DNA from: Candidatus Hadarchaeota archaeon
Lineage (GTDB): Archaea; Hadarchaeota; Hadarchaeia; Hadarchaeales; JAGGTB01
Assembly: GCA_964384105.1 (NCBI GenBank)
Contig: CAYLJV010000001.1
Span: 256,001-320,000 of the forward strand
Reading direction: 5' to 3'
DNA: 64,000 nucleotides
In this document: one piece after another, positions 25,311-38,987 of the stretch
Position numbering within the stretch: position 1 is the first letter of the stretch
Layout of the letters: every line of letters begins with the position of its first letter
Notes under the pieces: model-generated
Seen by the model: the letters and a program-made list of their open reading frames with translations, nothing else
What the model was told of the DNA's origin: nothing
Database searches by the model: none
Program-made: the position numbers and the translations under genes

Positions 25311-25388
25311 TGGAGCCGGGGACCGGATTTGAACCGGTGTAAGCGGATCTGCAGTCCGCCGCCTCAAACCAGGCTCGGCCACCCCGGC
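25311..25388 (-). tRNA. tRNA-Cys(GCA), CCA encoded
   Basis: Reverse complement has acceptor GCCGGGG/CCCCGGC, anticodon arm GCGGA-CTGCAGA-TCCGC, U73 and a CCA end. Confidence 0.97.
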
Positions 25389-25687: not shown

Positions 25688-26655
25688 ATGGAAGCAATAT
25701 TGACAGGAATGTTTCTAGGCGTAATTTTTGGCTATGTATGCCAAAGAGGCCGGTTCTGCATGAATTCCGGATTTAGGGATATTTGATGACAAGGGATTTC
25801 AGGATTTTCAAAGCCTTTGTTCTGGCCGTTCTGTTTCAGCTTATTGTTGTAAATGCTCTAGCTGGTTTGGGGATTTTCCCAATTAGACAACTTCCTTTTT
25901 TGTGGGTAGGGAATATAGTTGGGGGATTGATTTTTGGTGTAGGAATGGTACTTGCAGCCGGCTGTGCTAGTGGAACGTGGTATCGTATGGGTGAAGGAAT
26001 GATGGGTAGTTTTGTTGCGGCTTTAGGATATATTTTAGCTGCTTTTTCGGCTAGAGGAGGGGCTTTATCTCCAATAGTACGGTCAGTTCATCAGTTTGGA
26101 ATTGATACTCCAGGATTACACACTTTGTTAGGGATAAATAAGTGGGTGATAATCGTAGTATTTGTGGTGGTTGCAGGATTCTGGCTTTTTAGAAATTTTG
26201 AGATCACATCGGGTGAGGGATGGAATTGGATAAAGACAGGTTTTGGAATCGGGATAGTCGGAGTTCTTGCTTGGTGGCTTAGCACTAGAACAGGTAGGAT
26301 TTACGGTTTAGGAATAACAGCTCCGTCGGCTTCTATAGGTGAATGGTTTACTACGAGTAACACTGCGTTGGTTAACTGGGGAACTTTTTTTGTAATCGCT
26401 ATACCTATTGGGGCTATGGTGGCTTCGTTCTTACATGGCGAATTTAAATTGCGGACCCCTCCTGCAAAAAGGGTACCTGTTCAGTTTGTTGGGGGATTGG
26501 CATTGGGTCTAGGTGCTACTCTCGCAGTTGGGTGCAATATTGGTGGAAGTGTAGCGGGGATACCCGTGTTAGCCGCCGGTAATATACTCGCAACAGTTTT
26601 CTTTATTTTGGGAAACTGGATGGCAGCTTATTTGCTATTTATGAGGAGGTGGTAA
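25688..26655 (+). CDS. YeeE/YedE (TsuA-like) thiosulfate/sulfur transporter, interrupted by a -1 frameshift near 25783
   Basis: 25688-25786 encodes MEAILTG...QRGRFCMNSGFRDI*; the other frame from 25783 has the GCASG and GCNIG conserved Cys motifs. Confidence 0.9.
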
Positions 26656-26656
26656 A

Positions 26657-26896
26657 TTGACTAAGATAGATAGAGAAATAGATCTCAGAGGTGAAGTATG
26701 TCCCTATACTTTTGTTAAATCGAAACTGGCACTTGAAGAAATGGAAGTGGGCGAAGTTTTGAAAGTAATGATAGATTATCCAATGGCAGCAGAAAATATT
26801 CCTAGAAGTATGGAAAATGAAGGACAAGAAGTAGTGAATGTAGAAAAGGTCGGAAATTCTGAATGGGAGATAATATTGAAGAAGAAAAAAGATTAA
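26657..26896 (+). CDS. tusA: TusA/YeeD (SirA-like) sulfur carrier
   Basis: IDLRGEVCPYT motif. Confidence 0.95.
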   Translation: MTKIDREIDLRGEVCPYTFVKSKLALEEMEVGEVLKVMIDYPMAAENIPRSMENEGQEVVNVEKVGNSEWEIILKKKKD

Positions 26897-26935: not shown

Positions 26936-27952
26936 CTACCTAGTTTGAGATTTAATGTCTTTTACTATCCCGATAAACTCAGTGAAAATACTGTTCATCA
27001 TTTCTTTAAATTCCTCTCTATCTGTTGCGATTTTTTCTAGGCCCTCATCAAATTCTTTTATCATTCCTATATCTAGCCAATTTTCTCTTTTGTTTGCAAA
27101 TCCATTTCCAGTGATAATTGGTTTTGCCGTTTCCATTGCTTTTTGTGCTTGTGATTCATCTCTGAATTTTAGTGGAAGATAAACAGTCATTTTTTTTACT
27201 GATCCGCTCTCGTCTTGGTCTAAGTATAGTCTTAGGGCTTTCCCTCTGTAGTAACCATGGAAGTGATCTGTTCCCTTGTCAAAATTCATTTCTTTTAGTG
27301 GTTCCACGAGATGGCTAGGTAGATTATCCATTATACATCCACAGAGGGCATCAGTTACATTGGGCTCGGATAATTGTTCTACTAGTTTAGTGAAAATATC
27401 GTATGGCATTCCCATAGCTAGTTCGTCGTCTTTGAATCCTCCAATGGAGCGGGCCCCTCCACAGAGTAAAGTCAGATTTGGTTTATCTTCCATGTATGGA
27501 ATAGCGGTTGCTTCACCGGCTATAGCAGACCCCTCGCTAGTGCAGCTTGATTCAATTCTTTCCTTTGACATTTGGTGATAGACCTGAAAGACTTTCATCA
27601 TTGTTTCGGGATCAGAAATTATTACGACTACATCAGGTGTTCCTTTTTCAAGTTCTAATGGTCTTACTGTTACAGCTTTTGTTTTTGAAGGTTTTATCCG
27701 AGGATATATTTCTGTATACTTTGGATCGGCAAATCCTAAGATGATTGTTGCAGTAAAATTGCTGAGATTTTTTTCCTTTAAAGTAAATGATTCTCTTAGT
27801 TTTGCCGCATTTCTTACGAAGTAACAGAAACGGTTTGAAGTATCTGGTGATGGACTATTGGTGTCTTGGATGTGAACGGTAATTGCCACAGGGCTCAACG
27901 GCATTTTAAAGAATTTTCTGAAACTATTTGAGAGCTCTTCATTATTTTCCAT
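26936..27952 (-). CDS. DUF169 family protein with an extra C-terminal domain
   Basis: SPVAI, RFC, PDVVVI, NLTLLCGGARS...DELAMGMP typical of DUF169; about 140 extra residues starting LCGCIMD. Confidence 0.75.
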   Translation of the reverse strand: MENNEELSNSFRKFFKMPLSPVAITVHIQDTNSPSPDTSNRFCYFVRNAAKLRESFTLKEKNLSNFTATIILGFADPKYTEIYPRIKPSKTKAVTVRPLELEKGTPDVVVIISDPETMMKVFQVYHQMSKERIESSCTSEGSAIAGEATAIPYMEDKPNLTLLCGGARSIGGFKDDELAMGMPYDIFTKLVEQLSEPNVTDALCGCIMDNLPSHLVEPLKEMNFDKGTDHFHGYYRGKALRLYLDQDESGSVKKMTVYLPLKFRDESQAQKAMETAKPIITGNGFANKRENWLDIGMIKEFDEGLEKIATDREEFKEMMNSIFTEFIGIVKDIKSQTR

Positions 27953-27953
27953 C

Positions 27954-29150
27954 CTAATTACTCACCGGAATCTCATATTTTTCAGCAATTTCGTAAAAAG
28001 TATCTATCACATATTCAAGTTCATCTCTAGAAAGTCCATAGGTGTTAATCTTTATCATTTTTGTAACGCCAGGTTGTATACCGCTTATTTTTTTCTCTTT
28101 CAACTCGTCATACAAGAAAAATCCTCTTCTCTTATGTTCCTTCGAAATTTGGTGGAATGAAGGTGTTTCTAGTGACATAAGTGTATGTTTTCTTGGTCTT
28201 TGTCCGATTTGCCGAAAATCTCTGATTTTTTCTATCTGTTTAACAAACCATCGAGCATTTTCTATGTGTTTGTCCCATTCTTGAACACGTTTGTAGACAT
28301 GAGGGAAACTAGCCATTAAGGTAGCTATTGGGGCTCCAAATACAGGAGGGCAACCAAATAGACTGGGTATTTTCTTTGTGAAACCTCTTCCCGACCACGA
28401 TCCTCTGATTTTTGAGCCACTAAATGCTTCATCTGAGTACTCATAGCTTGTCATTAGCATTCCAATGGGACCTGAAGCTGCCCACGATTTGTGTCCACTA
28501 AACGTTATAAAATCGGCATTCCACTTTTTCCCGTCAATAGGCATTATTCCGCCGGTATAGGCTGCATTTACGATAAAGGGTATATCATATTCTCTAGCTA
28601 TCGAGCCAATTTTTTCCGGTTCGATGAGGTTTCCATACCTGTAGTCTACGTGAGTAAGAAATAGTGCAGCGGGCTTCTCATTTTTTTCTTCTATTGTCTC
28701 TTCTATTCTTTCTCTATAAGCCTCCGTCTCGAGTTCGAAATCAGGATATCCGTTGTGGGGTACTTCCTTGACTTCAAGCCCGAGATTTTCTGCTGCGAGA
28801 TAAGTTGTGTAATGTGCTAGAGAGTCAATTACGATAGTGTCACCCTCTTCAGCTACAGCTTTTAGAGCGATCCACTGTGCGTGTCTACATCCGGCTGTAA
28901 ACTCCGCATCATCCATGTTAACAAATCTCGCTAAATCATTTGAAAAGTCCGAAATGGGTGGTTTATCTACTAGGTCCACTCTCCCTTCTAAACAGAAGTC
29001 ACATGTACTGTATCCATCTCCAAAGGATTGTAGCGTTTCTTTTGATTCTGGAGGGAGCATTCCACCTCGTTGAATAGGATTTAGATTGATCCAATCCTCA
29101 TCGATTCTTCTTTTGATATTTTTGTATTTGTCTAAGTCTATACTTTCCAT
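27954..29150 (-). CDS. pscS: O-phospho-L-seryl-tRNA:Cys-tRNA synthase (SepCysS)
   Basis: INLNPIQRGG, GDGYSTCDFC, AHYTT, SGHKS (PLP lysine), distal GC cysteine. Confidence 0.95.
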   Translation of the reverse strand: MESIDLDKYKNIKRRIDEDWINLNPIQRGGMLPPESKETLQSFGDGYSTCDFCLEGRVDLVDKPPISDFSNDLARFVNMDDAEFTAGCRHAQWIALKAVAEEGDTIVIDSLAHYTTYLAAENLGLEVKEVPHNGYPDFELETEAYRERIEETIEEKNEKPAALFLTHVDYRYGNLIEPEKIGSIAREYDIPFIVNAAYTGGIMPIDGKKWNADFITFSGHKSWAASGPIGMLMTSYEYSDEAFSGSKIRGSWSGRGFTKKIPSLFGCPPVFGAPIATLMASFPHVYKRVQEWDKHIENARWFVKQIEKIRDFRQIGQRPRKHTLMSLETPSFHQISKEHKRRGFFLYDELKEKKISGIQPGVTKMIKINTYGLSRDELEYVIDTFYEIAEKYEIPVSN

Positions 29151-29260: not shown

Positions 29261-30367
29261 ATGGTCGAGGTTATCGTGGATTTTCCCAACAAGAATGGGG
29301 CTGGAAGAAAAAAGGTAAATGTTATTTTTGAAGGGGATACTCTATCTGACCTTTTTGAAAAAATCACAGAAGGATACGGAAGATTGGTTGAGGGATTGTT
29401 TGATTTTGATCGGAAGATTCCCTTGGACCATGTAAACATTTTTATAAATAACGAGATGGCGGAGAAAAAAGAATTTGCCAGTAGTGAGGTTAGCTCTGGC
29501 TCTGAGGTCAAAATATTGCCATTAATAGCAGGAGGGTCAAAGAATAGTAAGCTTTTTGGATTTGATGAGGATCAAATCAAGAGATATAGTCGGCAGATAG
29601 TTCTTCCTGAGGTTGGTGGAAAAGGTCAGAGGAAACTTTTGGACTCAAATGTTTTGATAGTGGGAGCAGGTGGATTAGGTTCACCGGCTGCGATATATTT
29701 GGCTGCTGCGGGTGTAGGACGTATAGGAATAGTGGATGACGATGTTGTAGAGTTAAGCAATCTTCAAAGACAGATATTATATGGAACGGAAGACTTGAAA
29801 GATAGAAAAGTAAAAGTTGCAGAGAAGAGAATTCACGATATCAACCCTGAAGTTGAGGTAGTGACATATGATAAGTGTTTAACTCCCGAAAATGTCTTTG
29901 ATATCTTTGGAGAAAATTGGGATATCATTTTAGATGGTACTGATAATTTTCCTGCGAAGTTTTTGATAAATGATGCGTGCGTGATGGAAGGTATTCCTTT
30001 TTCTCATGGAGCTATTCTAAGATTTACAGGTATGGTGACTACAATACTGCCTAAGGACGGTCCTTGTTACAGATGTTTCACTCCAACGGCTCCTCCTCCT
30101 GGTTTGGTGCCTAGTTGTCAGGAAGCAGGAGTTCTGGGTGTAATGCCGGGAATAATAGGGTCTATTCAGTCAGCTGAGGTTCTAAAATACATTTTGGGTG
30201 TGGGAGGTCTTTTAAAAGGAAGGATTGTCTTTTTGGACGCTCAAGAAATGGAGTTTGAAGAATTTAAGCATAGTAGGAGGGATGAATGCCCTATATGTGG
30301 CAAAGAACCGAAAATTACTGATCTTGATCAAGTTGATTATGGGGATGTGTGTCAGGTTCGGTTTTGA
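29261..30367 (+). CDS. MoaD/ThiS ubiquitin-like domain fused to a MoeB/ThiF/UbaA E1-like adenylyltransferase
   Basis: Beta-grasp N-terminal domain ending ILPLIAGG, then RYSRQ, GAGGLG, SNLQRQ, CYRC, PSC and CPIC. Confidence 0.92.
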   Translation: MVEVIVDFPNKNGAGRKKVNVIFEGDTLSDLFEKITEGYGRLVEGLFDFDRKIPLDHVNIFINNEMAEKKEFASSEVSSGSEVKILPLIAGGSKNSKLFGFDEDQIKRYSRQIVLPEVGGKGQRKLLDSNVLIVGAGGLGSPAAIYLAAAGVGRIGIVDDDVVELSNLQRQILYGTEDLKDRKVKVAEKRIHDINPEVEVVTYDKCLTPENVFDIFGENWDIILDGTDNFPAKFLINDACVMEGIPFSHGAILRFTGMVTTILPKDGPCYRCFTPTAPPPGLVPSCQEAGVLGVMPGIIGSIQSAEVLKYILGVGGLLKGRIVFLDAQEMEFEEFKHSRRDECPICGKEPKITDLDQVDYGDVCQVRF

Positions 30368-30389
30368 AATAAAAATTTTGAGGTAAAAA

Positions 30390-31184
30390 ATGGGAACTAA
30401 AAAGTTTGGATCACTTGGCGAAAAAGATGTAACTAGGGCAATCTCCAATTCATTCAGAAAAACTTTTGAAGAATATACTGAGAGTGATGTGATAATTGTT
30501 GGCGGTGGACCTAGCGGTTTAATGACGGGGAAGGAACTAGCAGAAAATGGAGTAAAAGTGTTGCTCGTTGAGGCTAATAATTATCTCGGAGGCGGTTTCT
30601 GGCTTGGAGGTTATTTGATGAATAAGGTTACAGTAAGAGAACCCGCTCAAGAGGTATTGGATGACCTGGAGGTGCCTTACGAGAAGGCGAGTAGAAATAT
30701 TTATGTTTCTGATGGCCCACATGCTTGTTCTAAACTCATAGGAGCGGCATGCGATGCAGGTATAGAAATTCTGAATATGACTCGTTTTGAGGACGTTGTT
30801 CTTCGTGAAGGGAACCGAGTCGGGGGAGCTGTAATAAATTGGTCCCCAATAAAATCCTTGCCTAGGGAAATTACGTGTGTTGACCCTGTAGGAATGGAGT
30901 CGAAATTAGTCGTAGATGCGACGGGTCATGATGCGGAGGTTGCAAAGAAAATGGAGGAAAGAGGTTTCTTGGAAACTGTTGGGTATGGAGGGATGTGGGT
31001 TGAAAAATCAGAGGATTTAATTGTAGAACATACAGGGGTAGTTCATCCAGGTCTTGTTGCCACAGGGATGGCAGTGTCTACGACTTATGGACTTCCTAGA
31101 ATGGGACCTACATTTGGTGCTATGTTGCTTTCTGGCAAGAGGGCGGCGAATGTTGTTCAAGAGGAACTTAAAGAATTTAGATAA
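30390..31184 (+). CDS. thi4: Thiazole synthase Thi4 (active-site Cys type)
   Basis: [39 protein letters not shown]. Confidence 0.96.
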
Positions 31185-31980
31185 AGATCGGATTAGAATC
31201 CACTTTTATGATGACCCCTCTACTAGACATCTCGATGTTGAAGAATTGTCTAGGTACGTCACTGAGAAGACTTCTTTTAGGAAGCCAGATGTTAGAAGAC
31301 CTCTTGTAGAAGGAAAAAAGATTTCAAAAAATGATTTGGCTCGGAAATTCGCAAAATCGAGAGTAAGGAATCTTGGGAAAACAAAGGAGGATTTTGAACC
31401 ACTTTATGGTGAAATTAGATTCGAGGAGAACCTTATCGAAAATCCAGGTAAGAATATCTCAGGTATTTTGTATGATGGATTTTTGCTGACTAAAATTTTT
31501 CGCGACCTTATTTCTGCGAATGAGCGAAATTATTTTCACATTCATATAATCTTTACAAACCGACTTTTTGGTACGTGGGATGATAATGATCGTAGATATC
31601 ATGCAAGGGTTTCTGTTTATGGATTTCCTACCATTATCTCTACTTCCGGCATTGTTGAGGCTCCCGCGAAACCAAAGGAATTTTACAGAAAAAAAAGGGA
31701 GTTAGCGAGTTTAGGGAATACTAGTGGGGCTATAGATCGAGCTAAAAAGAATTTTGAGGGGAGATTTGTTGAGTATAACGATAATCGATTAATGGAGATT
31801 ATGAAAGGTTATGCTATGCAAGCTGTCTTTTATCATTTAACTTCCAATCCATTTTGCGAAAAGAAATACTGTAGATTATACAATGCACACTGGCAGGAGG
31901 AAGTGCTTAGAGCACAATTAGAATCCCCTGAATTTTGTGAAAGTCATAAAAAAATGATTGAGAATTTGAAAAGTTACTGA
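31150..31980 (+). CDS. DUF6775-like putative metallopeptidase-fold protein
   Basis: [25 protein letters not shown], [17 protein letters not shown]; start uncertain. Confidence 0.65.
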
Positions 31981-32005
31981 GATTTAGACTGTCACGGAAT
32001 TCTTT

Positions 32006-32425
32006 TTAGTAATTTGTTAGCTTGACTTCAACGGGTTGTTCTTCCCATTTGAATGATTTTATCTCAGTTAATCTGCCTTTGTTATCTGTCCCTGCTATTA
32101 TCCATAGTTTTTCTGGCCACAATTCCATGCATTTTCTGTCCAAACTACTTACGAAAGCAGTCAGGTTAGGGTGGGAGTGAAAAAAACCTACCAATTCTTT
32201 GTTTTTTTCATCTCCTATTTCTTCTATGGTCTCTGCTACTAGAATTGGGTCCATTTTAAATGATATGGGTGAATCTAAAACATTCTCAGCTTCGATGGCT
32301 CTTTTTATATCTATTACTTCATTTTGTTTCTTCCCGATCAGTAAAGCACATCCTTCATTCGGGAAATATTTTTTCGAGATTTTTTCTATTTCTTCTCTAA
32401 CCTTTTTTCTCAATTTCGCTTTCAT
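32006..32425 (-). CDS. JAB/MPN+ (JAMM) metalloprotease
   Basis: EGCALLIG and FHSHP...S..D JAMM motif. Confidence 0.92.
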   Translation of the reverse strand: MKAKLRKKVREEIEKISKKYFPNEGCALLIGKKQNEVIDIKRAIEAENVLDSPISFKMDPILVAETIEEIGDEKNKELVGFFHSHPNLTAFVSSLDRKCMELWPEKLWIIAGTDNKGRLTEIKSFKWEEQPVEVKLTNY

Positions 32426-32886
32426 TTTTTTGATTTGTATGCCTTAGCACAGTGTTCGCAACAGAATGGGAGGACTTTTCCGTCTATTTTTTCCCTATAT
32501 ACTCTAGTTTTAGAATTATCTTCCGAATGTCCTTCGAAAATTTTACAACTACAGTGGGCGCATTCGGAAAGCCAGGGATCTAAAATTTCATAAATCAAAT
32601 TGTAAAAACTCTTTAAAACTTCAGAGAATTTCTCTTCTCCTTTTTCGCTGAGTTTATATATCTTTCTGGTTCGGCCCTTAACTTTCTTTTCGCTGGATTT
32701 AACTAGCCCTTCTTTCTCAAGTTCTTCTAAAAGGGGGTATATTTGTCCAGTTGATGGCTCTTTACCTAATCTTTCTTTTACTTCTCTTATTATCTCATAA
32801 CCATGCCTTGGCTTTTGTGATAGTAAAGCTATTGTGTAAAACTTAGTTAGATTTGTAAGAAATTCCCAGGTCTCAGTCATTTTCAT
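32422..32886 (-). CDS. PadR-family regulator with C-terminal TRASH metal-binding domain
   Basis: HGYEII...GQIYPLL..LEKEG...RKIYKL winged HTH; CAHC...FCCEHC TRASH motif. Confidence 0.88.
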   Translation of the reverse strand: MKMTETWEFLTNLTKFYTIALLSQKPRHGYEIIREVKERLGKEPSTGQIYPLLEELEKEGLVKSSEKKVKGRTRKIYKLSEKGEEKFSEVLKSFYNLIYEILDPWLSECAHCSCKIFEGHSEDNSKTRVYREKIDGKVLPFCCEHCAKAYKSKK

Positions 32887-32925
32887 CCTAATCGTAAAGT
32901 TTATTGGCCTATATATTTAAATATG

Positions 32926-32946
32926 ATATATCTAAAAAAGACATAT
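32926..32946. promoter_or_regulatory. Imperfect inverted repeat ATATATCT-N5-AGACATAT, candidate PadR-TRASH operator
   Basis: Lies between TATA-like ATATTTAAATAT and the copA start in the divergent promoter. Confidence 0.4.
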
Positions 32947-32954
32947 GTGGGACC

Positions 32955-35453
32955 ATGGTAGGTGAGAGTAAAAAGAAATTAACTATTAAAATCGGGGGAA
33001 TGACTTGTGTTTCCTGTGCACAAACTGTAGAAAACTCCCTCGAGAGATTGAATGGTATATACAAGGCTAACGTCAACTTTGCTACTGAAAAGTTAATCGT
33101 TGAATATGATCCGGATAAAGTTGAAAAAGAAAAAATATTCAAGACTATAGAAAATTCTGGTTATCAACCGATCGAGGAAGAAAAAACAGGAAAAGGAAAA
33201 GAAGAAATAACTTTCGAAATCACCGACATGACCTGTGCTTCTTGCGCAGACACGGTCCAAAAAGCCCTTTCAAATCTTGAAGGAGTATACACTGCAAATG
33301 TTAACCTAGCGACCGAGAAGGCAAGGGTGGAATACTCCCCCGATCTGGTTTCGATCGAGGAAATGAGAAGAGTAATCGAGGAAGTAGGTTACGGGGTGGA
33401 ATCCGAAGAAAGAGGAGAGCAAGAAGTAGAAGAGGTCGAAAAGGCAAAGAATCGCACTCTTGTCGCTTGGGGAGCCTCAATCCCGATTATCGCTTGGATG
33501 ATCCCGGAGATGATCTTCGGTATTGCCTGGCCTAATCAGATGATCTATAATCTAGGTATGACGTTACTAGCTATTCCCGTTTTATTCTGGGTCGGTCGCC
33601 ACACCTACAAGAGCGCCCTGAAGACCATAAGTCACGGGTCGGCTAACATGGACGTCTTGATTTTCCTCGGATCTTTCGCAGCATTCGTGACTGGTCCTTC
33701 AAGGCTACTATTTTTTCCAGAAATTCTGAATTACGCAGGGGTTGGGGCGATGATAATGGCATTCCACCTCACAGGTAGGTACATCGAAGCAAGGGCAAGA
33801 GGTCGAGCTTCTCAGGCTATCAAAAGGCTGATGGAGTTAGAGGCGGACACGGCGAGGATAATCGAGGACGGCGAAGAAAGGGAGGTTCCCTTGGACCGGG
33901 TCGAGGAAGGAAACCTATTGAAAGTCAGACCTGGTGAAAAGATACCCACCGACGGGGTTGTAGTAGAAGGGGAGAGTTCCGTAGATGAATCCATGGCGAC
34001 TGGAGAGTCCACCCCCGTTCGCAAGGAAAAGGGTGATGAGGTGATAGGGTCTACGGTAAACCAGGATGGGGTGCTCACCGTCGAAGCGACCAAGGTGGGG
34101 AAGGATACCTTCCTATCCAAAGTCATAGAGATGGTCGAAGAAGCCCAGGGGACAAAAGTTCCCATCCAAAGATTCGCTGACAGGATTACAAGCTATTTCG
34201 TTCCTGCTATCATTATAATAACGATCATCACAGTCATACTCTGGTTAATTATACCACAGAAAGTGGATTTTCTTGCTTCCGCTTTTGAAGGAACGCTACC
34301 TTGGATAAACTTATCATTACGTCCGGTCATGCTGGCCATATTCGCGGGCATAGCCACTCTCGTTATAGCTTGCCCCTGCGCTTTAGGTCTTGCTACCCCT
34401 ACGGCTCTTATGGTTGGGAGTGGTAAGGGTGCAGAGAACGGGATACTCATTCGTAAAGGGGAAGCGATCCAGGTCCTCAAGAACATCGATACAATAATTT
34501 TCGATAAAACGGGAACGATGACAGAAGGAAAAATGACCTTAACTGACATTATTGTCGCACCGGGAATTAATGGTAACCCTGAAGACCAAATACTTCAGCT
34601 TGCGGCGACTGCGGAATACAACTCCGAACACCCGATAGGTAGGGCTATCGTAGAAGAAGCCAGGGAAAGAGAAACGGAACTTCGAGAACCTGACGAGTTT
34701 AAAGCGATAGGAGGGAAAGGCGTGAAAATCTCACTAGATAGTAGCGAAGTAATAGTCGGAAATCGGAATTTTTTAGAGGAAGAGGGCATTGACTCATCCC
34801 CAATGGAGGAAGAATTGGAAAAACTGGAGAACGAAGGCAAGACAGCCATACTCATCGGAAAGGACAGAAGACTCTTAGGAGCTGTGGCGGTGGCAGACAC
34901 TCTCAAAGAGGATACCATTCCGACAATAAGCAAACTGAAGGAGATGGGTCTCGAAACAGCGATGATAACCGGCGACAATCCTAGAACCGCGAAGGCCATA
35001 GCTGAAAAGGCGGGAATATCAAGAGTCCTGTCGGAAGTACTCCCTGACGAAAAAGCCGACGAGATTAGAAAACTTCAAGAAAAGGGAAAAAAAGTTGCCA
35101 TGGTTGGGGACGGGATAAACGATGCACCTGCTCTAACTCAATCGAACGTAGGAATAGCAATCGGCACAGGGACCGATATCGCAATCGAATCGGGAGAGAT
35201 AGTTCTGGTTCGTGGGGAACTCTCTGGAGTAGTTAGTGCGGTCGAACTTTCACAGAAGACTTTCGACAAGATTAGACAAAACCTCTGGTGGGCCTTCGGC
35301 TACAACGTCGTAATGATCCCTCTAGCAGTTTTAGGGATAATGCACCCTCTTTTTGCTGAGGCTGCTATGGCTGTAAGTTCTGTTAGTGTAGTAACAAATG
35401 CGAATAGACTCAAAAATGTGGATATTGGCTATGATACATTGAAACGTGAATAG
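32955..35453 (+). CDS. copA: Cu(I)-translocating P1B-type ATPase with two HMA domains
   Basis: MTCVSC and [32 protein letters not shown]...MAVSS. Confidence 0.96.
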
Positions 35454-35572: not shown

Positions 35573-35974
35573 ATGAGACCGCCTTGTGAATCAATTGTGA
35601 AGAGGGTTCTGCCGACGGTTAGATCGATCCTGGTTAAAGAACTTAGTGATGAATATGGCCTTAGCCAAAGTGAGATAGCTAATAAGCTTGCTATAACTCA
35701 ACCTGCTGTGAGCCAATATTTAAGCTCTGCTCGGGGGAAGGGAAAGCTTAAAAAGAGCTTAAAAAAGACGGGCTTGTATCCTAAGCTCAAGAAACTTGCT
35801 AAAGAAATCGCCGAAGGCAGTATCAAACGTGAACAAATAGTTAAAAAATACTGTGAAGTCTGTACTTCTATGAGGTCCGAGGAGGTTCTTTGTGCTATTC
35901 ATGCCGAGAATGCACCCTTATTGTCAGAGGAAGAGTGTAAAATTTGTCTTGAAACTAAGGATGAACAGTCCTAG
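35573..35974 (+). CDS. Cys-rich HTH transcriptional regulator (COG2522/ThiR-N-like)
   Basis: MRPPCE, HTH SQSEIANKLAITQPAVSQYL, C-terminal CEVC, LCAIH and CKIC. Confidence 0.85.
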   Translation: MRPPCESIVKRVLPTVRSILVKELSDEYGLSQSEIANKLAITQPAVSQYLSSARGKGKLKKSLKKTGLYPKLKKLAKEIAEGSIKREQIVKKYCEVCTSMRSEEVLCAIHAENAPLLSEEECKICLETKDEQS

Positions 35975-36380
35975 ACAGAACGGATAGCGGATGTCCTTTA
36001 CTTTTAAATTCAAATTCTTTGTACCATCCGAATGGAGCTCTCGAAGAATTAAAATTGGATTTTTTTAATTCAGATTCTAACTTTTCCAGAATTTCGATTG
36101 CGAATTGTGGAGAGGAAAGATTTTCTGAGAGGTGTGCAAAAGGAAAGAGAAAAATATTTTTACTCTTGATTTTTGAAGCCACTTTTTTTATTTCTCTAAG
36201 GGCCTTTTCTACCATTTCGTCTCCAGTGGAGTTTTCATCACTTTTTTCAACCGAAAAAAATACTATAAGAGGATCTTCCATGTCTCTTTCTTTACTGTTT
36301 TCACCTATCTCTTCTGCAATGGGGGTCTTTTGCTTAACTTTGTAGTTTACATAGTCTGCATGAATGAACAACATTCTCAT
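35955..36380 (-). CDS. Stand-alone archaeal ThrRS-type (DTD-like) editing domain
   Basis: MRMLFIHAD, VEKSDE, PFAHLS, RAPFGWYK, KGHPL; 141 aa with no catalytic or anticodon-binding domain. Confidence 0.92.
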   Translation of the reverse strand: MRMLFIHADYVNYKVKQKTPIAEEIGENSKERDMEDPLIVFFSVEKSDENSTGDEMVEKALREIKKVASKIKSKNIFLFPFAHLSENLSSPQFAIEILEKLESELKKSNFNSSRAPFGWYKEFEFKSKGHPLSVLSRTVHP

Positions 36381-36437: not shown

Positions 36438-37739
36438 TTAGGCTGCTTTTAGTGCTTGATCGAGATCCTCTTTTATGTCTTCTATATGTTCGATTCCTAC
36501 AGAAAGTCTTATAAAGTCCTCAGTAACACCGCCTTGTTTTCGTTGTTTTGCAGATAATTGGGAGTGTGTTGTTGACCAAGGGTGGATTGCAAGTGATTTT
36601 GCGTCGCCTACATTTGCTAGATGTGAGAACAGTCGAAGATTTTCAATGAATTTTTTTCCTGCTTTAGCTCCTCCTTCAATTCCGAAACCTACTATCCCTC
36701 CGTAACCATTCTTCAGATATTTTTCTGCTAGGTCTTTTGTAGGGTGGTCCTCTAGTCCAGGGTAGATAACCCAGTTAACCTTTGGATGGTCCTTTAGGAA
36801 TTCCACTGTTTTCATTGCGTTCTCTGAATGTCTCTCCATCCTTAGATGTAGTGTTTCCAATCCTTGGAGGAGTAAAAATGCGTTGAAAGGGCTCATACAA
36901 GATCCTATGTCTCGAGTATATCGAGATTTCAATTTGACTATATAAGATAGTTCTTGGAATTCGTTCCAGTAGTTAAGCCCGCCTCTGTATCCTGGATCGG
37001 TTTCAGTTATCTCGGGAAAATTCCCTTTCGACCAGTCGAATTTTCCAGAATCTACAACTAGACCACCGAGGACTGTGCCATGACCTCCGATCCATTTTGT
37101 TGCTGAGTGAGTTATTATGTCGGTGCCCCATTTGAATGGGTTGCATAGATATGGTGTAGCAAAGGTGTTGTCAACGAACAAAGGAATTTGATTTTCGTGA
37201 GCTACTTTGGCCGCCTCTTCTATATCCAGCACGTTTAATTTAGGATTTCCAATAGTTTCACCAAAGATCGCTTTTGTATTCTCATCGATAGATTCGGCGA
37301 ACCCTTCAGGCGTTGGATCAACAAATTCTACGTTTATTCCAAATTTCTTTGGAAATGTCAGATCAAAAAGGGTGATTGTTCCACCGTACAGTGTTTTCGA
37401 GGCCACAATTTTGTCTCCAGAACTGGCTATTGTGATGAGCGCTAGTGTTGTGGCTGCTTGTCCTGATGCGGTTGCTGCTGCGGCTATCCCGCTTTCTAGT
37501 TTTGCTATTCTTTTCTCTAGTGTTTCATAGGTGGGGTTTGTGAACCGACTGTAGATTTGTCCGGGGAATTCGGGAGGTTTTAATGCGAATAAATCTGCGG
37601 CTTGCTTTGTGTCTTTAAAATTATAAGCTACGGTGGGATATATTGGGGGTGCCCTTGCTCTAGTGTGTGGATCTGGTTCTTGTCCCGCATGCAATGTTTC
37701 AGTATCAAACTTAAATTTCTCATTACTCAATTTTTTCAC
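36438..37739 (-). CDS. metY: O-acetylhomoserine sulfhydrylase (MetY/CysD family)
   Basis: [41 protein letters not shown]. Confidence 0.93.
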
Positions 37740-37814: not shown

Positions 37815-37829
37815 AAAAGATTGGTATTT

Positions 37830-38987
37830 ATGGAAGTCTATTTGGATAATGGGAATACCACTCCTGTTGATAGACGAGTGGTAGAAGCTATGGAGCCTTA
37901 TTTTACCGAAAAATTTGGACACCCCCTTTTCATCTATTCTCAGGGAAAAGAAGCTAATGAAGCTTTAGAGGATGCTAGTGAGGTTATTGCTGATACAGTC
38001 GGTGCTGGCGGAGATGAAGTTATTTTTACTTCTGGGGCAACGGAAGCTAACGATATTGCATTACGTGGAGTTGCTGGCGCTAGAAAAGACCAAGGAAATC
38101 ATATAATTACTTCCGAAATAGAACACCCTTCCGTTTTGAGAGTATGTGAGGAACTCGAGAGGGTCGGATACGAAGTGGATTATTTGGGAGTTGATGAAGA
38201 AGGATTTGTTGATCTTGATCAGTTAAGGGAACTAATAAAGGATGAGACTATCCTAGTTAGTGTAACCCAAGTTAGTGATGAGATTGGCACTATTGAACCG
38301 CTAAAAAAGATTGGGGAGATCATATCAGAAAGAAATCCTGAAACATATTTTCATACAAATGCCGCTGCTTCTTACGGTCTTGTTCCAATTGATATTAGGG
38401 AAAGTAATATCGATTTAGTCAGTCTAAGTGCTCATAAAATACATGGACCAAAGGGAATTGGTGCATTGATAGCTAGAGATCGGGTAGAATTGGAGCCTAT
38501 TAACTATGGGTATCTTTCCCTCTCGAGGATAAGACCGGGTACTGAAAATGTACCGGGTATTGTAGGATTTCGGAAGGCAGTTGAGCTAGCTTTTGAGGAT
38601 TTTAATTCTAAAGTTGGATTTATCGGAGACTTGAGAGACACTTTGATGAGGGGGATCGAGGATAGTATTCCGGAGGTAGTTATGCATGGCCCAAGTGGTG
38701 AAGAAAGGAGTCCTGCTAACGTGAATTATTCTTTTAAGCATATAGAGGGCGAATCCATTTTACTACATCTCGATGCTAGAGGTATTTCTGTGTCTACCGG
38801 TTCCGCATGTGCTACCCGGAAACTTGAGCCAAGCCATGTACTCCGGGCAATAGAGGTAGATCCAGTAGTTTCCCACGGAGCTATTAGATTTACATTGAGT
38901 AGAATGAATACTGAAGAAGAAATCGATTATACCTTGGAGGTACTTCCAGAAGTTGTTGAGGGATTGAGATCGATGAGCCCTATATAA
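37830..38987 (+). CDS. iscS: Cysteine desulfurase IscS/NifS family
   Basis: YLDN..TT, FTSGATEA, IEHPSV, SAHKIHGPKG, STGSAC. Confidence 0.92.
   Translation: MEVYLDNGNTTPVDRRVVEAMEPYFTEKFGHPLFIYSQGKEANEALEDASEVIADTVGAGGDEVIFTSGATEANDIALRGVAGARKDQGNHIITSEIEHPSVLRVCEELERVGYEVDYLGVDEEGFVDLDQLRELIKDETILVSVTQVSDEIGTIEPLKKIGEIISERNPETYFHTNAAASYGLVPIDIRESNIDLVSLSAHKIHGPKGIGALIARDRVELEPINYGYLSLSRIRPGTENVPGIVGFRKAVELAFEDFNSKVGFIGDLRDTLMRGIEDSIPEVVMHGPSGEERSPANVNYSFKHIEGESILLHLDARGISVSTGSACATRKLEPSHVLRAIEVDPVVSHGAIRFTLSRMNTEEEIDYTLEVLPEVVEGLRSMSPI

Follow-up and report, generated by a model that had tools for sequence, protein, structure and literature searches.

The window analyzed here, a stretch of 64,000 nucleotides from Candidatus Hadarchaeota archaeon (NCBI GenBank assembly GCA_964384105.1, contig CAYLJV010000001.1, positions 256,001 to 320,000 of the forward strand), encodes at 29261..30367 on the plus strand a fusion of a ThiS/MoaD-like sulfur carrier with an E1 activating enzyme. 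Comparison with related genomes suggests that this fusion is probably a polyprotein matured by a JAMM metalloprotease (JAB) encoded in the same gene island. It is proposed that the carrier, once cut free and loaded with sulfur by the E1 and a TusA-type protein, would supply SepCysS, whose gene is divergent from the fusion, and probably the thiazole synthase Thi4 as well. The probability of this explanation as a whole, which is drawn from sequence comparison, is put at about one half.

In this model, a ubiquitin-like (Ubl) sulfur carrier is made in one chain with its own activating enzyme. The neighboring JAMM protease would cut this precursor after Gly92 to free the Gly-Gly (GG) carboxylate of the carrier, a step suggested by the comparison of fused and unfused relatives. 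By the chemistry of the family, the E1 domain would then adenylate the freed carboxylate; since adenylation requires a free Gly-Gly carboxylate, the fusion would have to be cut. A TusA-type protein, given this role on the strength of its co-occurrence, would deliver sulfur as persulfide, which might derive from thiosulfate taken up through YeeE, and the carrier thiocarboxylate (carrier-COSH) would result. TusA is proposed as the persulfide relay because the E1 lacks a rhodanese domain. Finally, the thiocarboxylate would serve SepCysS, which would stand in the place that CysM has in the CysO/MoeZ/Mec/CysM pathway, and in the window genome probably also the Cys-type Thi4 that is likely to be encoded on the same transcript; synteny is the basis for both of these assignments.

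The fusion and its junction

The gene is a single ORF (open reading frame) of 368 amino acids, with an ATG start and no internal stops. Its carrier domain (residues 1-92; 29261..29536, plus strand) ends in A-G-G and matches PF02597 at residues 15-92 with 34.3 bits (Pfam cut-off 22.5). The junction and linker follow (residues 93-108; 29537..29584, plus strand), with the predicted cleavage site between G92 and S93, and the remainder is the E1 adenylyltransferase domain (29585..30367, plus strand). This domain matches PF00899 at residues 109-344 with 276 bits (Pfam cut-off 28.1) and spans positions 1-237 of the 238 in the profile; the E1 core is complete. A search of the protein with the rhodanese family of Pfam, PF00581, gave no match. 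In the translated ORF the junction reads ...SEVKILPLIAGG(91,92)SKNSKLFGFDEDQIKRYSRQ..., such that the carrier end ILPLIAGG (G91, G92) is followed by SKNSKLFG and then by the first helix of the E1, FDEDQIKRYSRQ. Thus, the architecture given in a preliminary description of this DNA, a carrier ending in ILPLIAGG in frame with a complete E1, is borne out by the ORF and by both family matches. The fusion has no free C-terminal Gly-Gly; the pair is internal (residues 91-92 of 368), and a free end would consequently need proteolysis.

In an alignment of 24 sequences, the junction residues A-G-G show conservation of at least 90%, the linker in the relatives is 1-8 residues long, and E1 residues R108, Y109, R111, G135, A136, G137, D159, C269, C272, C286, C343, and C346 are invariant. 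Furthermore, G91 and G92 are invariant across 19 aligned carrier domains. The fusion E1 keeps the RYxRQ helix, the GAGGLGS loop, the CxxC pairs 269/272 and 343/346, and the loop cysteine C286, which presumably have the roles assigned to them in the MoeB/ThiF literature (nucleotide-binding Gly-rich loop, zinc-binding CxxC pairs, and loop cysteine). The nearest solved chains to the E1 domain are ThiF 1zud (E 2e-52), MoeB 1jw9, and Uba4 6yub. An AlphaFold2 model of the fusion, built from the 24 aligned sequences, has a mean pLDDT (predicted local distance difference test score) of 85.9. In it, the carrier has a beta-grasp fold (strands 2-8, 17-23, 58-62, and 82-87; helix 28-43), with block pLDDT values of 73-85 over most of the domain, and the only segment of at least three residues with pLDDT below 50 is 90-93, the junction, which is consequently predicted to be disordered. 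An assembly artefact was ruled out because many genomes have such a fusion; the carrier is not a degenerate remnant either, given its family score over the cut-off, its folded model, and the retained GG.

The family assignments would allow a simpler interpretation, in which the fusion belongs to a housekeeping system of the SAMP/UbaA type, used for molybdopterin, tRNA 2-thiolation, or conjugation, and sits in a sulfur island by chance. The best NCBIfam matches are indeed MoeB and UbaA (the SAMP-activating E1) for the E1, SAMP1 for the carrier, and desampylase for the JAB. However, all of these fall under their curated cut-offs. The fusion is below every named NCBIfam E1 cut-off (MoeB 345.6 against 449, UbaA 337.3 against 450, MoeZ 281.3 against 647, and ThiF 246.9 against 275.25), the carrier scores 34.4 where SAMP1 requires 60, and the JAB scores 56.3 where desampylase requires 130. 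In addition, a second E1, unfused and 247 amino acids long, is encoded elsewhere in the genome (G000; 1.6 Mb, 90% complete), between two free carriers (C1:576486-578051, locus L003), and fits the housekeeping role better. The flanking carriers end in ...IVMGG and ...PVSGGLN (the latter at C1:577767-578051); the ...PVSGGLN carrier would need trimming and is thus likely to be a further JAB substrate. The genome also contains at least four further ThiS-family ORFs over the cut-off, a second Prok-JAB, and, on another contig, MoaE. The second E1 with its own carriers, together with MoaE elsewhere, indicates that housekeeping carrier functions have their own genes. Finally, synteny ties the fusion to SepCysS, TusA, and DUF169 rather than to MoaE or NcsA. 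Taken together, these observations make a housekeeping role improbable.

Forms of the fusion and the JAB protease

The JAMM/MPN+ (Prok-JAB) metalloprotease is encoded at 32006..32425 on the minus strand. It begins 1.64 kb past the fusion, in agreement with the distance of 1.6 kb given in the preliminary description. It matches PF14464 with 53.5 bits (cut-off 25) and has the full E...HxH...S..D motif; all 12 sequences compared share E24, H83, H85, S93, and D96. Among solved structures, it is closest to the archaeal JAMM1 (chains 5lda and 5ld9, E 1.4e-10). The start of the JAB gene overlaps the end of the adjacent PadR gene by 4 nt.

The relation of this protease to the fusion was approached through a sample of 66 genomes of the phylum, in which two E1 lineages with an N-terminal carrier, type A and type B, are found. 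Type A comprises the window orthologs, which have 50-56% identity over the whole protein and are fused in nine genomes (that of the window and eight further). In two others (G031 and G032), the carrier has its own gene, which encodes 96 amino acids, ends in ...RLIPAVAGG-stop, and lies ~30-80 nt upstream of the E1; thus, in the split orthologs a stop codon stands exactly at the position of the window's junction. In five genomes of one genus, the type-A cluster is without a carrier, and 5-7 free carriers, a few of them tailed after GG, are encoded elsewhere. In 13 of the 15 type-A loci, the gene that comes right after the E1 is TusA; a JAB is present within ~4 kb in 11 and SepCysS within ~3 kb in 12, and DUF169 adjoins SepCysS in eight. 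The window departs from this order, with TusA located beside YeeE and with Thi4 and DUF6775 between the E1 and the JAB. Another genome of the genus, G049, has the order JAB, Ubl-E1, TusA, without Thi4.

Type B, with 37-40% identity, lies directly upstream of a SepCysS paralog; in 12 genomes a sense codon follows GG, and in ten a stop codon does. In eight genomes, the carrier ends in ...GG TAG with the E1 frame in phase right after the stop (LTPEEFxRYxRQ; loci L138, L140-L143, and L147-L149 of G022, G013, G005, G016, G014, G007, G012, and G023). In seven of these eight loci, there is no ATG, GTG, or TTG ahead of the conserved RYxRQ helix. The stretch that follows the TAG seems to be translated, since its synonymous differences (CGA/AGA, CCA/CCG) preserve the peptide. 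The TAG form thus suggests either stop-codon read-through, which would give both a free carrier and a carrier-E1, or unconventional initiation. Insertion of pyrrolysine at the in-frame TAG was ruled out, as PylS scores over its cut-off in none of five genomes.

Orthologs of the window JAB are present in 30 of the 66 genomes, and their distribution tracks the form of the carrier. When genomes are compared as simple counts, in which relatives are not independent, JAB orthologs are found in 18 of the 21 genomes that encode a type-A or type-B fusion, in none of the nine with the stop-separated form only, and in all seven with unfused type-A clusters. In the three fused genomes without a JAB (G039, G029, and G009), a contig end cuts the cluster on the side where the JAB is expected. 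Among the nine stop-only genomes, five (66-92% complete) have no Prok-JAB of any kind, and at seven stop-form loci (six in stop-only genomes, the seventh being the type-B locus of G022) the DNA beyond SepCysS is present but contains no JAB. The same division is seen within one genus, in which all five fused genomes (G015, G018, G020, G021, and G026) have a JAB directly beside SepCysS, and none of four stop-only genomes (G013, G014, G016, and G023) has one. Because the JAB tracks the fused state, these results support the maturation of the polyprotein by JAB. The cleavage proposed in the preliminary description therefore gains comparative support from the JAB counts, from the orthologs that end in GG-stop, and from the Prok-JAB genes near bacterial fusions described below, and it is the better founded part of the model: that the fusion is a polyprotein matured by JAB is probable, more so than the explanation as a whole.

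Another hypothesis would have the fused carrier never released. It would then be a pseudo-substrate, a docking domain, or a regulatory domain; the E1 would act on free carriers, and the JAB would trim those or remove conjugates. The abundance of free carriers agrees with this, both in the window genome, where one of the further ThiS-family ORFs ends in GGLN, and in the related genomes with their 5-7 carriers, as does the retention of the JAB in the unfused type-A clusters. In addition, bacterial operons with ThiS-ThiF fusions also encode a solo ThiS, according to the available text of Iyer 2006 (PMC1779556). However, the GG is conserved exactly at a junction for which disorder is predicted, free genes that end in GG-stop are orthologs of the fused carrier, and the loss of the JAB coincides with the stop codon that frees the carrier (0/9). 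A carrier that stays attached is thus unlikely, though somewhat less so than a housekeeping role.

SepCysS and other candidate clients

If the carrier is released, which enzyme would receive its sulfur? The SepCysS gene (27954..29150, minus strand) is divergent from the fusion, with 110 bp between the two starts, and its product matches TIGR02539 with 470.9 bits (cut-off 365.25); the divergent pscS of the preliminary description is thereby corroborated. In 12 orthologs, K221 (the PLP, or pyridoxal phosphate, lysine, within SGHKS), C50, C53, and C267 are invariant. SepRS is present in the genome (536.6 bits against a cut-off of 380.65). Membership in the SepCysS/SepRS pathway is therefore indicated by the equivalog score, the PLP lysine, the three cysteines, and SepRS, and a tRNA-Cys gene lies in the island. 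No CysRS match over the cut-off was found in this 90%-complete genome. With SepRS present and no CysRS found, SepCysS needs a sulfur supply, and it is probably the sole route of the genome to Cys-tRNA. A second SepCysS paralog, with 41% identity, lies at C2:197678-198862; an inspection by eye, without a family search, of the ORFs in the surrounding 16 kb revealed nothing carrier- or E1-like.

The synteny extends well beyond the window. SepCysS is present in 61 of the 66 phylum genomes, and in 30 of these 61 an E1 is no more than 300 nt away, in 29 of them on the same strand; within 10 kb, the count is 40 of 61. The link occurs in three gene orders (SepCysS after the E1, SepCysS before it, and divergent) and with several pairs of E1 and SepCysS paralogs. 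The preliminary description had proposed a survey of co-occurrence with pscS. Of 36 E1-centered loci of the phylum, which are 2.6 to 21 kb long, 29 have SepCysS. Thus the client that the preliminary description put second has by far the strongest synteny, followed by TusA (15), JAB (15), DUF169 (9), Thi4 (9), DUF6775 (5), and MetY (2). On this evidence, it is plausible, at somewhat less than even odds, that the carrier thiocarboxylate is the sulfur donor of SepCysS. A predicted complex of a SepCysS dimer with carrier residues 1-92 (score 0.00, mark 0.32) weighs neither for nor against binding.

The MetY gene, noted earlier as part of the island, is indeed there (O-acetylhomoserine sulfhydrylase, 36438..37739, minus strand; TIGR01326, 607.6 bits against a cut-off of 495.1), 6 kb from the fusion and on the opposite strand. 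Its proposed role as a thiocarboxylate client has fared less well, given its presence in only two of the 36 loci; MetY would be at most an occasional client. A tRNA-Thr-ED gene stands beside MetY in the window, and the same pairing is seen in locus L134.

A stronger candidate is Thi4 (30390..31184, plus strand; TIGR00292, 240.2 bits against a cut-off of 148.3). This gene is on the same strand and begins only 23 nt after the fusion, and the two are probably co-transcribed. Where it has Cys163, chains 6hk1 and 4y4n have a His; this position is taken here to be the sulfur-donor site of suicide-type Thi4. It could thus be argued that Thi4 is the real client of the processed module, that carrier-COSH gives the thiazole sulfur and so spares Thi4 the loss of its own cysteine, and that the adjacency of SepCysS reflects no more than a shared island. 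Thi4 lies within ~10 kb in the nine loci that have it, and the preprint 10.1101/2025.09.23.678117, in its available text, proposes this donor role, with pilot complementation data. The same text reports that Thi4 clusters with DUF6775, ThiS, and ThiF and that DUF6775 is the commonest neighbor of Thi4; the Thi4-DUF6775 pair beside the window fusion matches this clustering. However, Thi4 is missing from 27 of the 36 loci, SepCysS being present in 29, and the direct adjacency of E1 and Thi4 is seen in the window only, the locus of G049 in the same genus being without Thi4. Thi4 as the real client in place of SepCysS is therefore unlikely, although it is the least improbable of the alternatives considered here.

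Several points weigh against the proposed explanation, in which JAB matures the polyprotein and SepCysS, with Thi4, receives the sulfur. The window carrier domain is only 20-28% identical to 18 other aligned carrier domains (26-28% to nine type-A ones), and the JAB is also found in all seven genomes with an unfused orthologous E1. Since it is kept in these clusters, it must have further substrates, for which tailed carriers are obvious candidates. Conversely, the stop-form lineages keep the carrier, the E1, and SepCysS without a window-type JAB; a Mec-like adduct hydrolase is consequently not obligatory for the SepCysS chemistry, which weakens a strict analogy with CysM/Mec. With respect to the client, the co-transcribed partner of the fusion in the window is probably Thi4 and not SepCysS. 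Furthermore, the link between the E1 and SepCysS was seen in the phylum of the window only, where kin are not independent, the sample having been drawn apart from methanogens and other SepCysS-bearing archaea. SepCysS is present in four of 401 Chloroflexota genomes sampled and in one of 301 sampled from the phylum of G075; at the four Chloroflexota loci, the 1.5 kb on either side contain neither an E1 nor a carrier, TusA, or JAB. Finally, the available text of Mukai 2017 (PMC5424206) describes SepCysS as active with sulfide in vitro and as an iron-sulfur protein. These two properties suggest that SepCysS may need no protein donor.

In the rest of the island, at lower coordinates than the DUF169 gene, lie tRNA-Cys (GCA) (25311..25388, minus strand; ARAGORN), a YeeE/TsuA-like sulfur (thiosulfate) transporter (25783..26655, plus strand; PF04143, 234.6 bits; NCBIfam TsuA 226.9 bits, under the cut-off of 400), and the TusA-like sulfurtransferase (26657..26896, plus strand; PF01206, 79.2 bits). 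The DUF169 protein itself, of 338 amino acids (26936..27952, minus strand; PF02596, 101.6 bits), is encoded directly downstream of SepCysS on the same strand, after a gap of 1 nt. The family match covers residues 82-192 only, and DUF169 relatives of ~200 amino acids are without the C-terminal 140 residues of the window protein. On the other side of the fusion, past Thi4, the longest ORF of the DUF6775 putative metallopeptidase occupies 31054..31980 on the plus strand (PF20565, 345.9 bits); as the family match begins at residue 47, the true start is probably internal, at ~31150. Thi4, DUF6775, the YeeE-TusA pair, and tRNA-Cys were absent from the preliminary description. Beyond the JAB come a PadR-family regulator with a Cys-rich C-terminal tail (32422..32886, minus strand), a CopA-type copper ATPase divergent from it (32904-35453), a helix-turn-helix protein, the free-standing tRNA-Thr-ED editing-domain protein (35955..36380, minus strand; PF08915, 164 bits), MetY, and a NifS/IscS-type cysteine desulfurase (37821..38987, plus strand; PF00266, 242.3 bits), which scores 446.8, below the NifS equivalog cut-off of 530.75. 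A PadR-CopA pair is also found near the cluster in genome G022 (locus L126). Among the scanned island genes, Pfam revealed no PALP-fold (CysM-type) gene; SepCysS stands in the equivalent place.

Known systems and meaning

Mycobacterial CysO/MoeZ/Mec+/CysM carry out thiocarboxylate-dependent cysteine synthesis. The window resembles this system in having a GG carrier and an E1, along with a JAMM protease and a PLP enzyme whose substrate is of the phosphoserine kind, and bacterial relatives of the fusion occur in this operon type. It differs in that the carrier is fused to the E1, that the E1 lacks a rhodanese domain and is accompanied by TusA instead, that the PLP enzyme is the tRNA-dependent SepCysS, with a fold different from that of CysM, and that the stop-form relatives do without JAB, such that adduct hydrolysis is not obligatory. 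In the HcyS/HcyF/HcyD/MetY system of Wolinella, a JAMM protease removes extra C-terminal residues from the carrier before its activation by the E1, and the client is of the MetY type. The window likewise has a carrier with an extension after GG, a JAMM protease, and MetY in the island; however, the extension is a whole E1, and MetY lies 6 kb away and is not conserved among the loci. Archaeal SAMP/UbaA/JAMM1 provide the closest solved relatives and have the Zn-JAMM and the E1 adenylation chemistry in common with the window. Unlike these, the window proteins fall short of the NCBIfam cut-offs for UbaA, SAMP1, and desampylase, a UbaA-like locus lies elsewhere in the genome, and the gene context implies no conjugation role. 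A precedent for the processing is MoaX, the fused MoaD-MoaE of M. tuberculosis, which becomes active only once cleaved between Gly82 and Ser83, according to the available text of PMC4326299. As in the window, the carrier is N-terminal to its partner enzyme and the junction is Gly-Gly followed by Ser, although the partner in MoaX is the sulfur acceptor MoaE and not an E1 (same source).

Fusions of this kind are widespread. Among the 120 best-listed database relatives, 94 match both PF02597 and PF00899, and many of the bacterial ones add a rhodanese domain. The names of the nearest proteins point to an archaeon of the Hadarchaeota/MSBL1 type. The neighbors of such genes were surveyed in 80 loci, mostly bacterial and none from the phylum of the window, by clustering the ORFs within 6 kb of the E1 and naming recurrent clusters by Pfam; the carrier was matched in 41 loci, and 32 form the class without a match. 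A Prok-JAB is a neighbor in 49 of the 80 (31/41 with a matched carrier, 14/32 without), usually directly upstream of the fusion, and a CysM/CysK-type PALP enzyme in 47 (34/41 and 12/32). The other recurrent neighbors are a free ThiS (24/80; 11/41 and 10/32), Rrf2 (14/80; 11/41 and 3/32), TusA (10/80; 3/41 and 6/32), and a NifS-like protein (9/80; 6/41 and 3/32). Somewhere in the genome, a Prok-JAB is present in 40 of the 41 with a matched carrier. Judged by these neighbors, the bacterial fusions are CysO-MoeZ fusions in the known CysM/Mec-type operon, a type listed in table rows 4c-4d of Iyer 2006 (PMC1779556). In addition, a Chloroflexota contig (L038:657-5595) encodes on one strand a CysM-like PALP enzyme, a Ubl-E1 fusion, DUF169, YeeE, two copies of TusA, and a JAB. 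By gene content, this operon is the parts list of the window with CysM replacing SepCysS, an independent parallel, and it suggests a thiosulfate-fed, carrier-dependent cysteine pathway that includes DUF169.

The NifS-like neighbors bear on a further possibility, namely, that sulfur flows in the reverse direction and that the SepCysS-family PLP enzyme acts as a cysteine desulfurase, loading persulfide sulfur on the activated carrier. SepCysS does share the class-V aminotransferase fold with NifS/IscS, and NifS-like genes recur near bacterial E1 genes (a cluster in nine of the 80 loci by one count; 12 tblastn matches in 11 loci by another). However, the window protein is over the SepCysS equivalog cut-off and far below the desulfurase cut-offs, the genome has SepRS and tRNA-Cys with no CysRS found, and the island contains a separate NifS gene. 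Reverse flow is thus very improbable, slightly more so than a housekeeping role.

Elements of the locus are already in print. The available text of Iyer 2006 (PMC1779556) records ThiS-ThiF fusions in some proteobacteria and Firmicutes, and that of Makarova and Koonin 2010 (PMC2948915) a "Ubl-E1-TBP in Thaumarchaeota"; the order, with the carrier N-terminal to the E1, is that of the window. These texts, as far as available, contain no processing mechanism, JAB correlation, or SepCysS link. For SepCysS clade VII of Hadesarchaea and MSBL1, the available part of Mukai 2017 (PMC5424206) describes an island with tRNA-Cys, tRNA-Thr-ED, DUF169, thiF, and "a few sulfur metabolism genes," with thiF and DUF169 drawn beside SepCysS in both groups (Fig. 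S2), and suggests that tRNA-Thr-ED proteins might clear Ser-tRNA(Cys). That part of the account is without a fused carrier, JAB, TusA, or thiocarboxylate donor. A search that left most subscription journals aside found no report linking SepCysS to a ubiquitin-like carrier or, relevantly, to a thiocarboxylate. Provisionally, then, the Ubl-E1 architecture and the position of thiF beside SepCysS have been published and the mechanism has not.

Taken together, these results have led to a tentative broader hypothesis. In this model, the donor of the Hadarchaeota-type SepCysS would be a Ubl thiocarboxylate that arises from a self-contained precursor through a dedicated JAMM protease and loading by TusA. 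Such a system would be the tRNA-dependent counterpart of CysO/CysM and would also spare Thi4 from suicide; its likelihood is clearly below that of the explanation for the window itself. To our knowledge, the sulfur donor of SepCysS in the cell has been an open question since the discovery of the enzyme. The clustering of SepCysS with the carrier, the E1, TusA, and the JAB names concrete proteins as a candidate sulfur supply. Furthermore, the fused, split, and stop-separated forms, with the matching gain and loss of the JAB, constitute a natural experiment on how Ubl precursors come to need a processing protease, a theme that is shared with the ubiquitin precursors of eukaryotes. Even if the hypothesis about SepCysS is wrong, the locus would stand as a clear case of a sulfur-carrier polyprotein in a CysO-like module.

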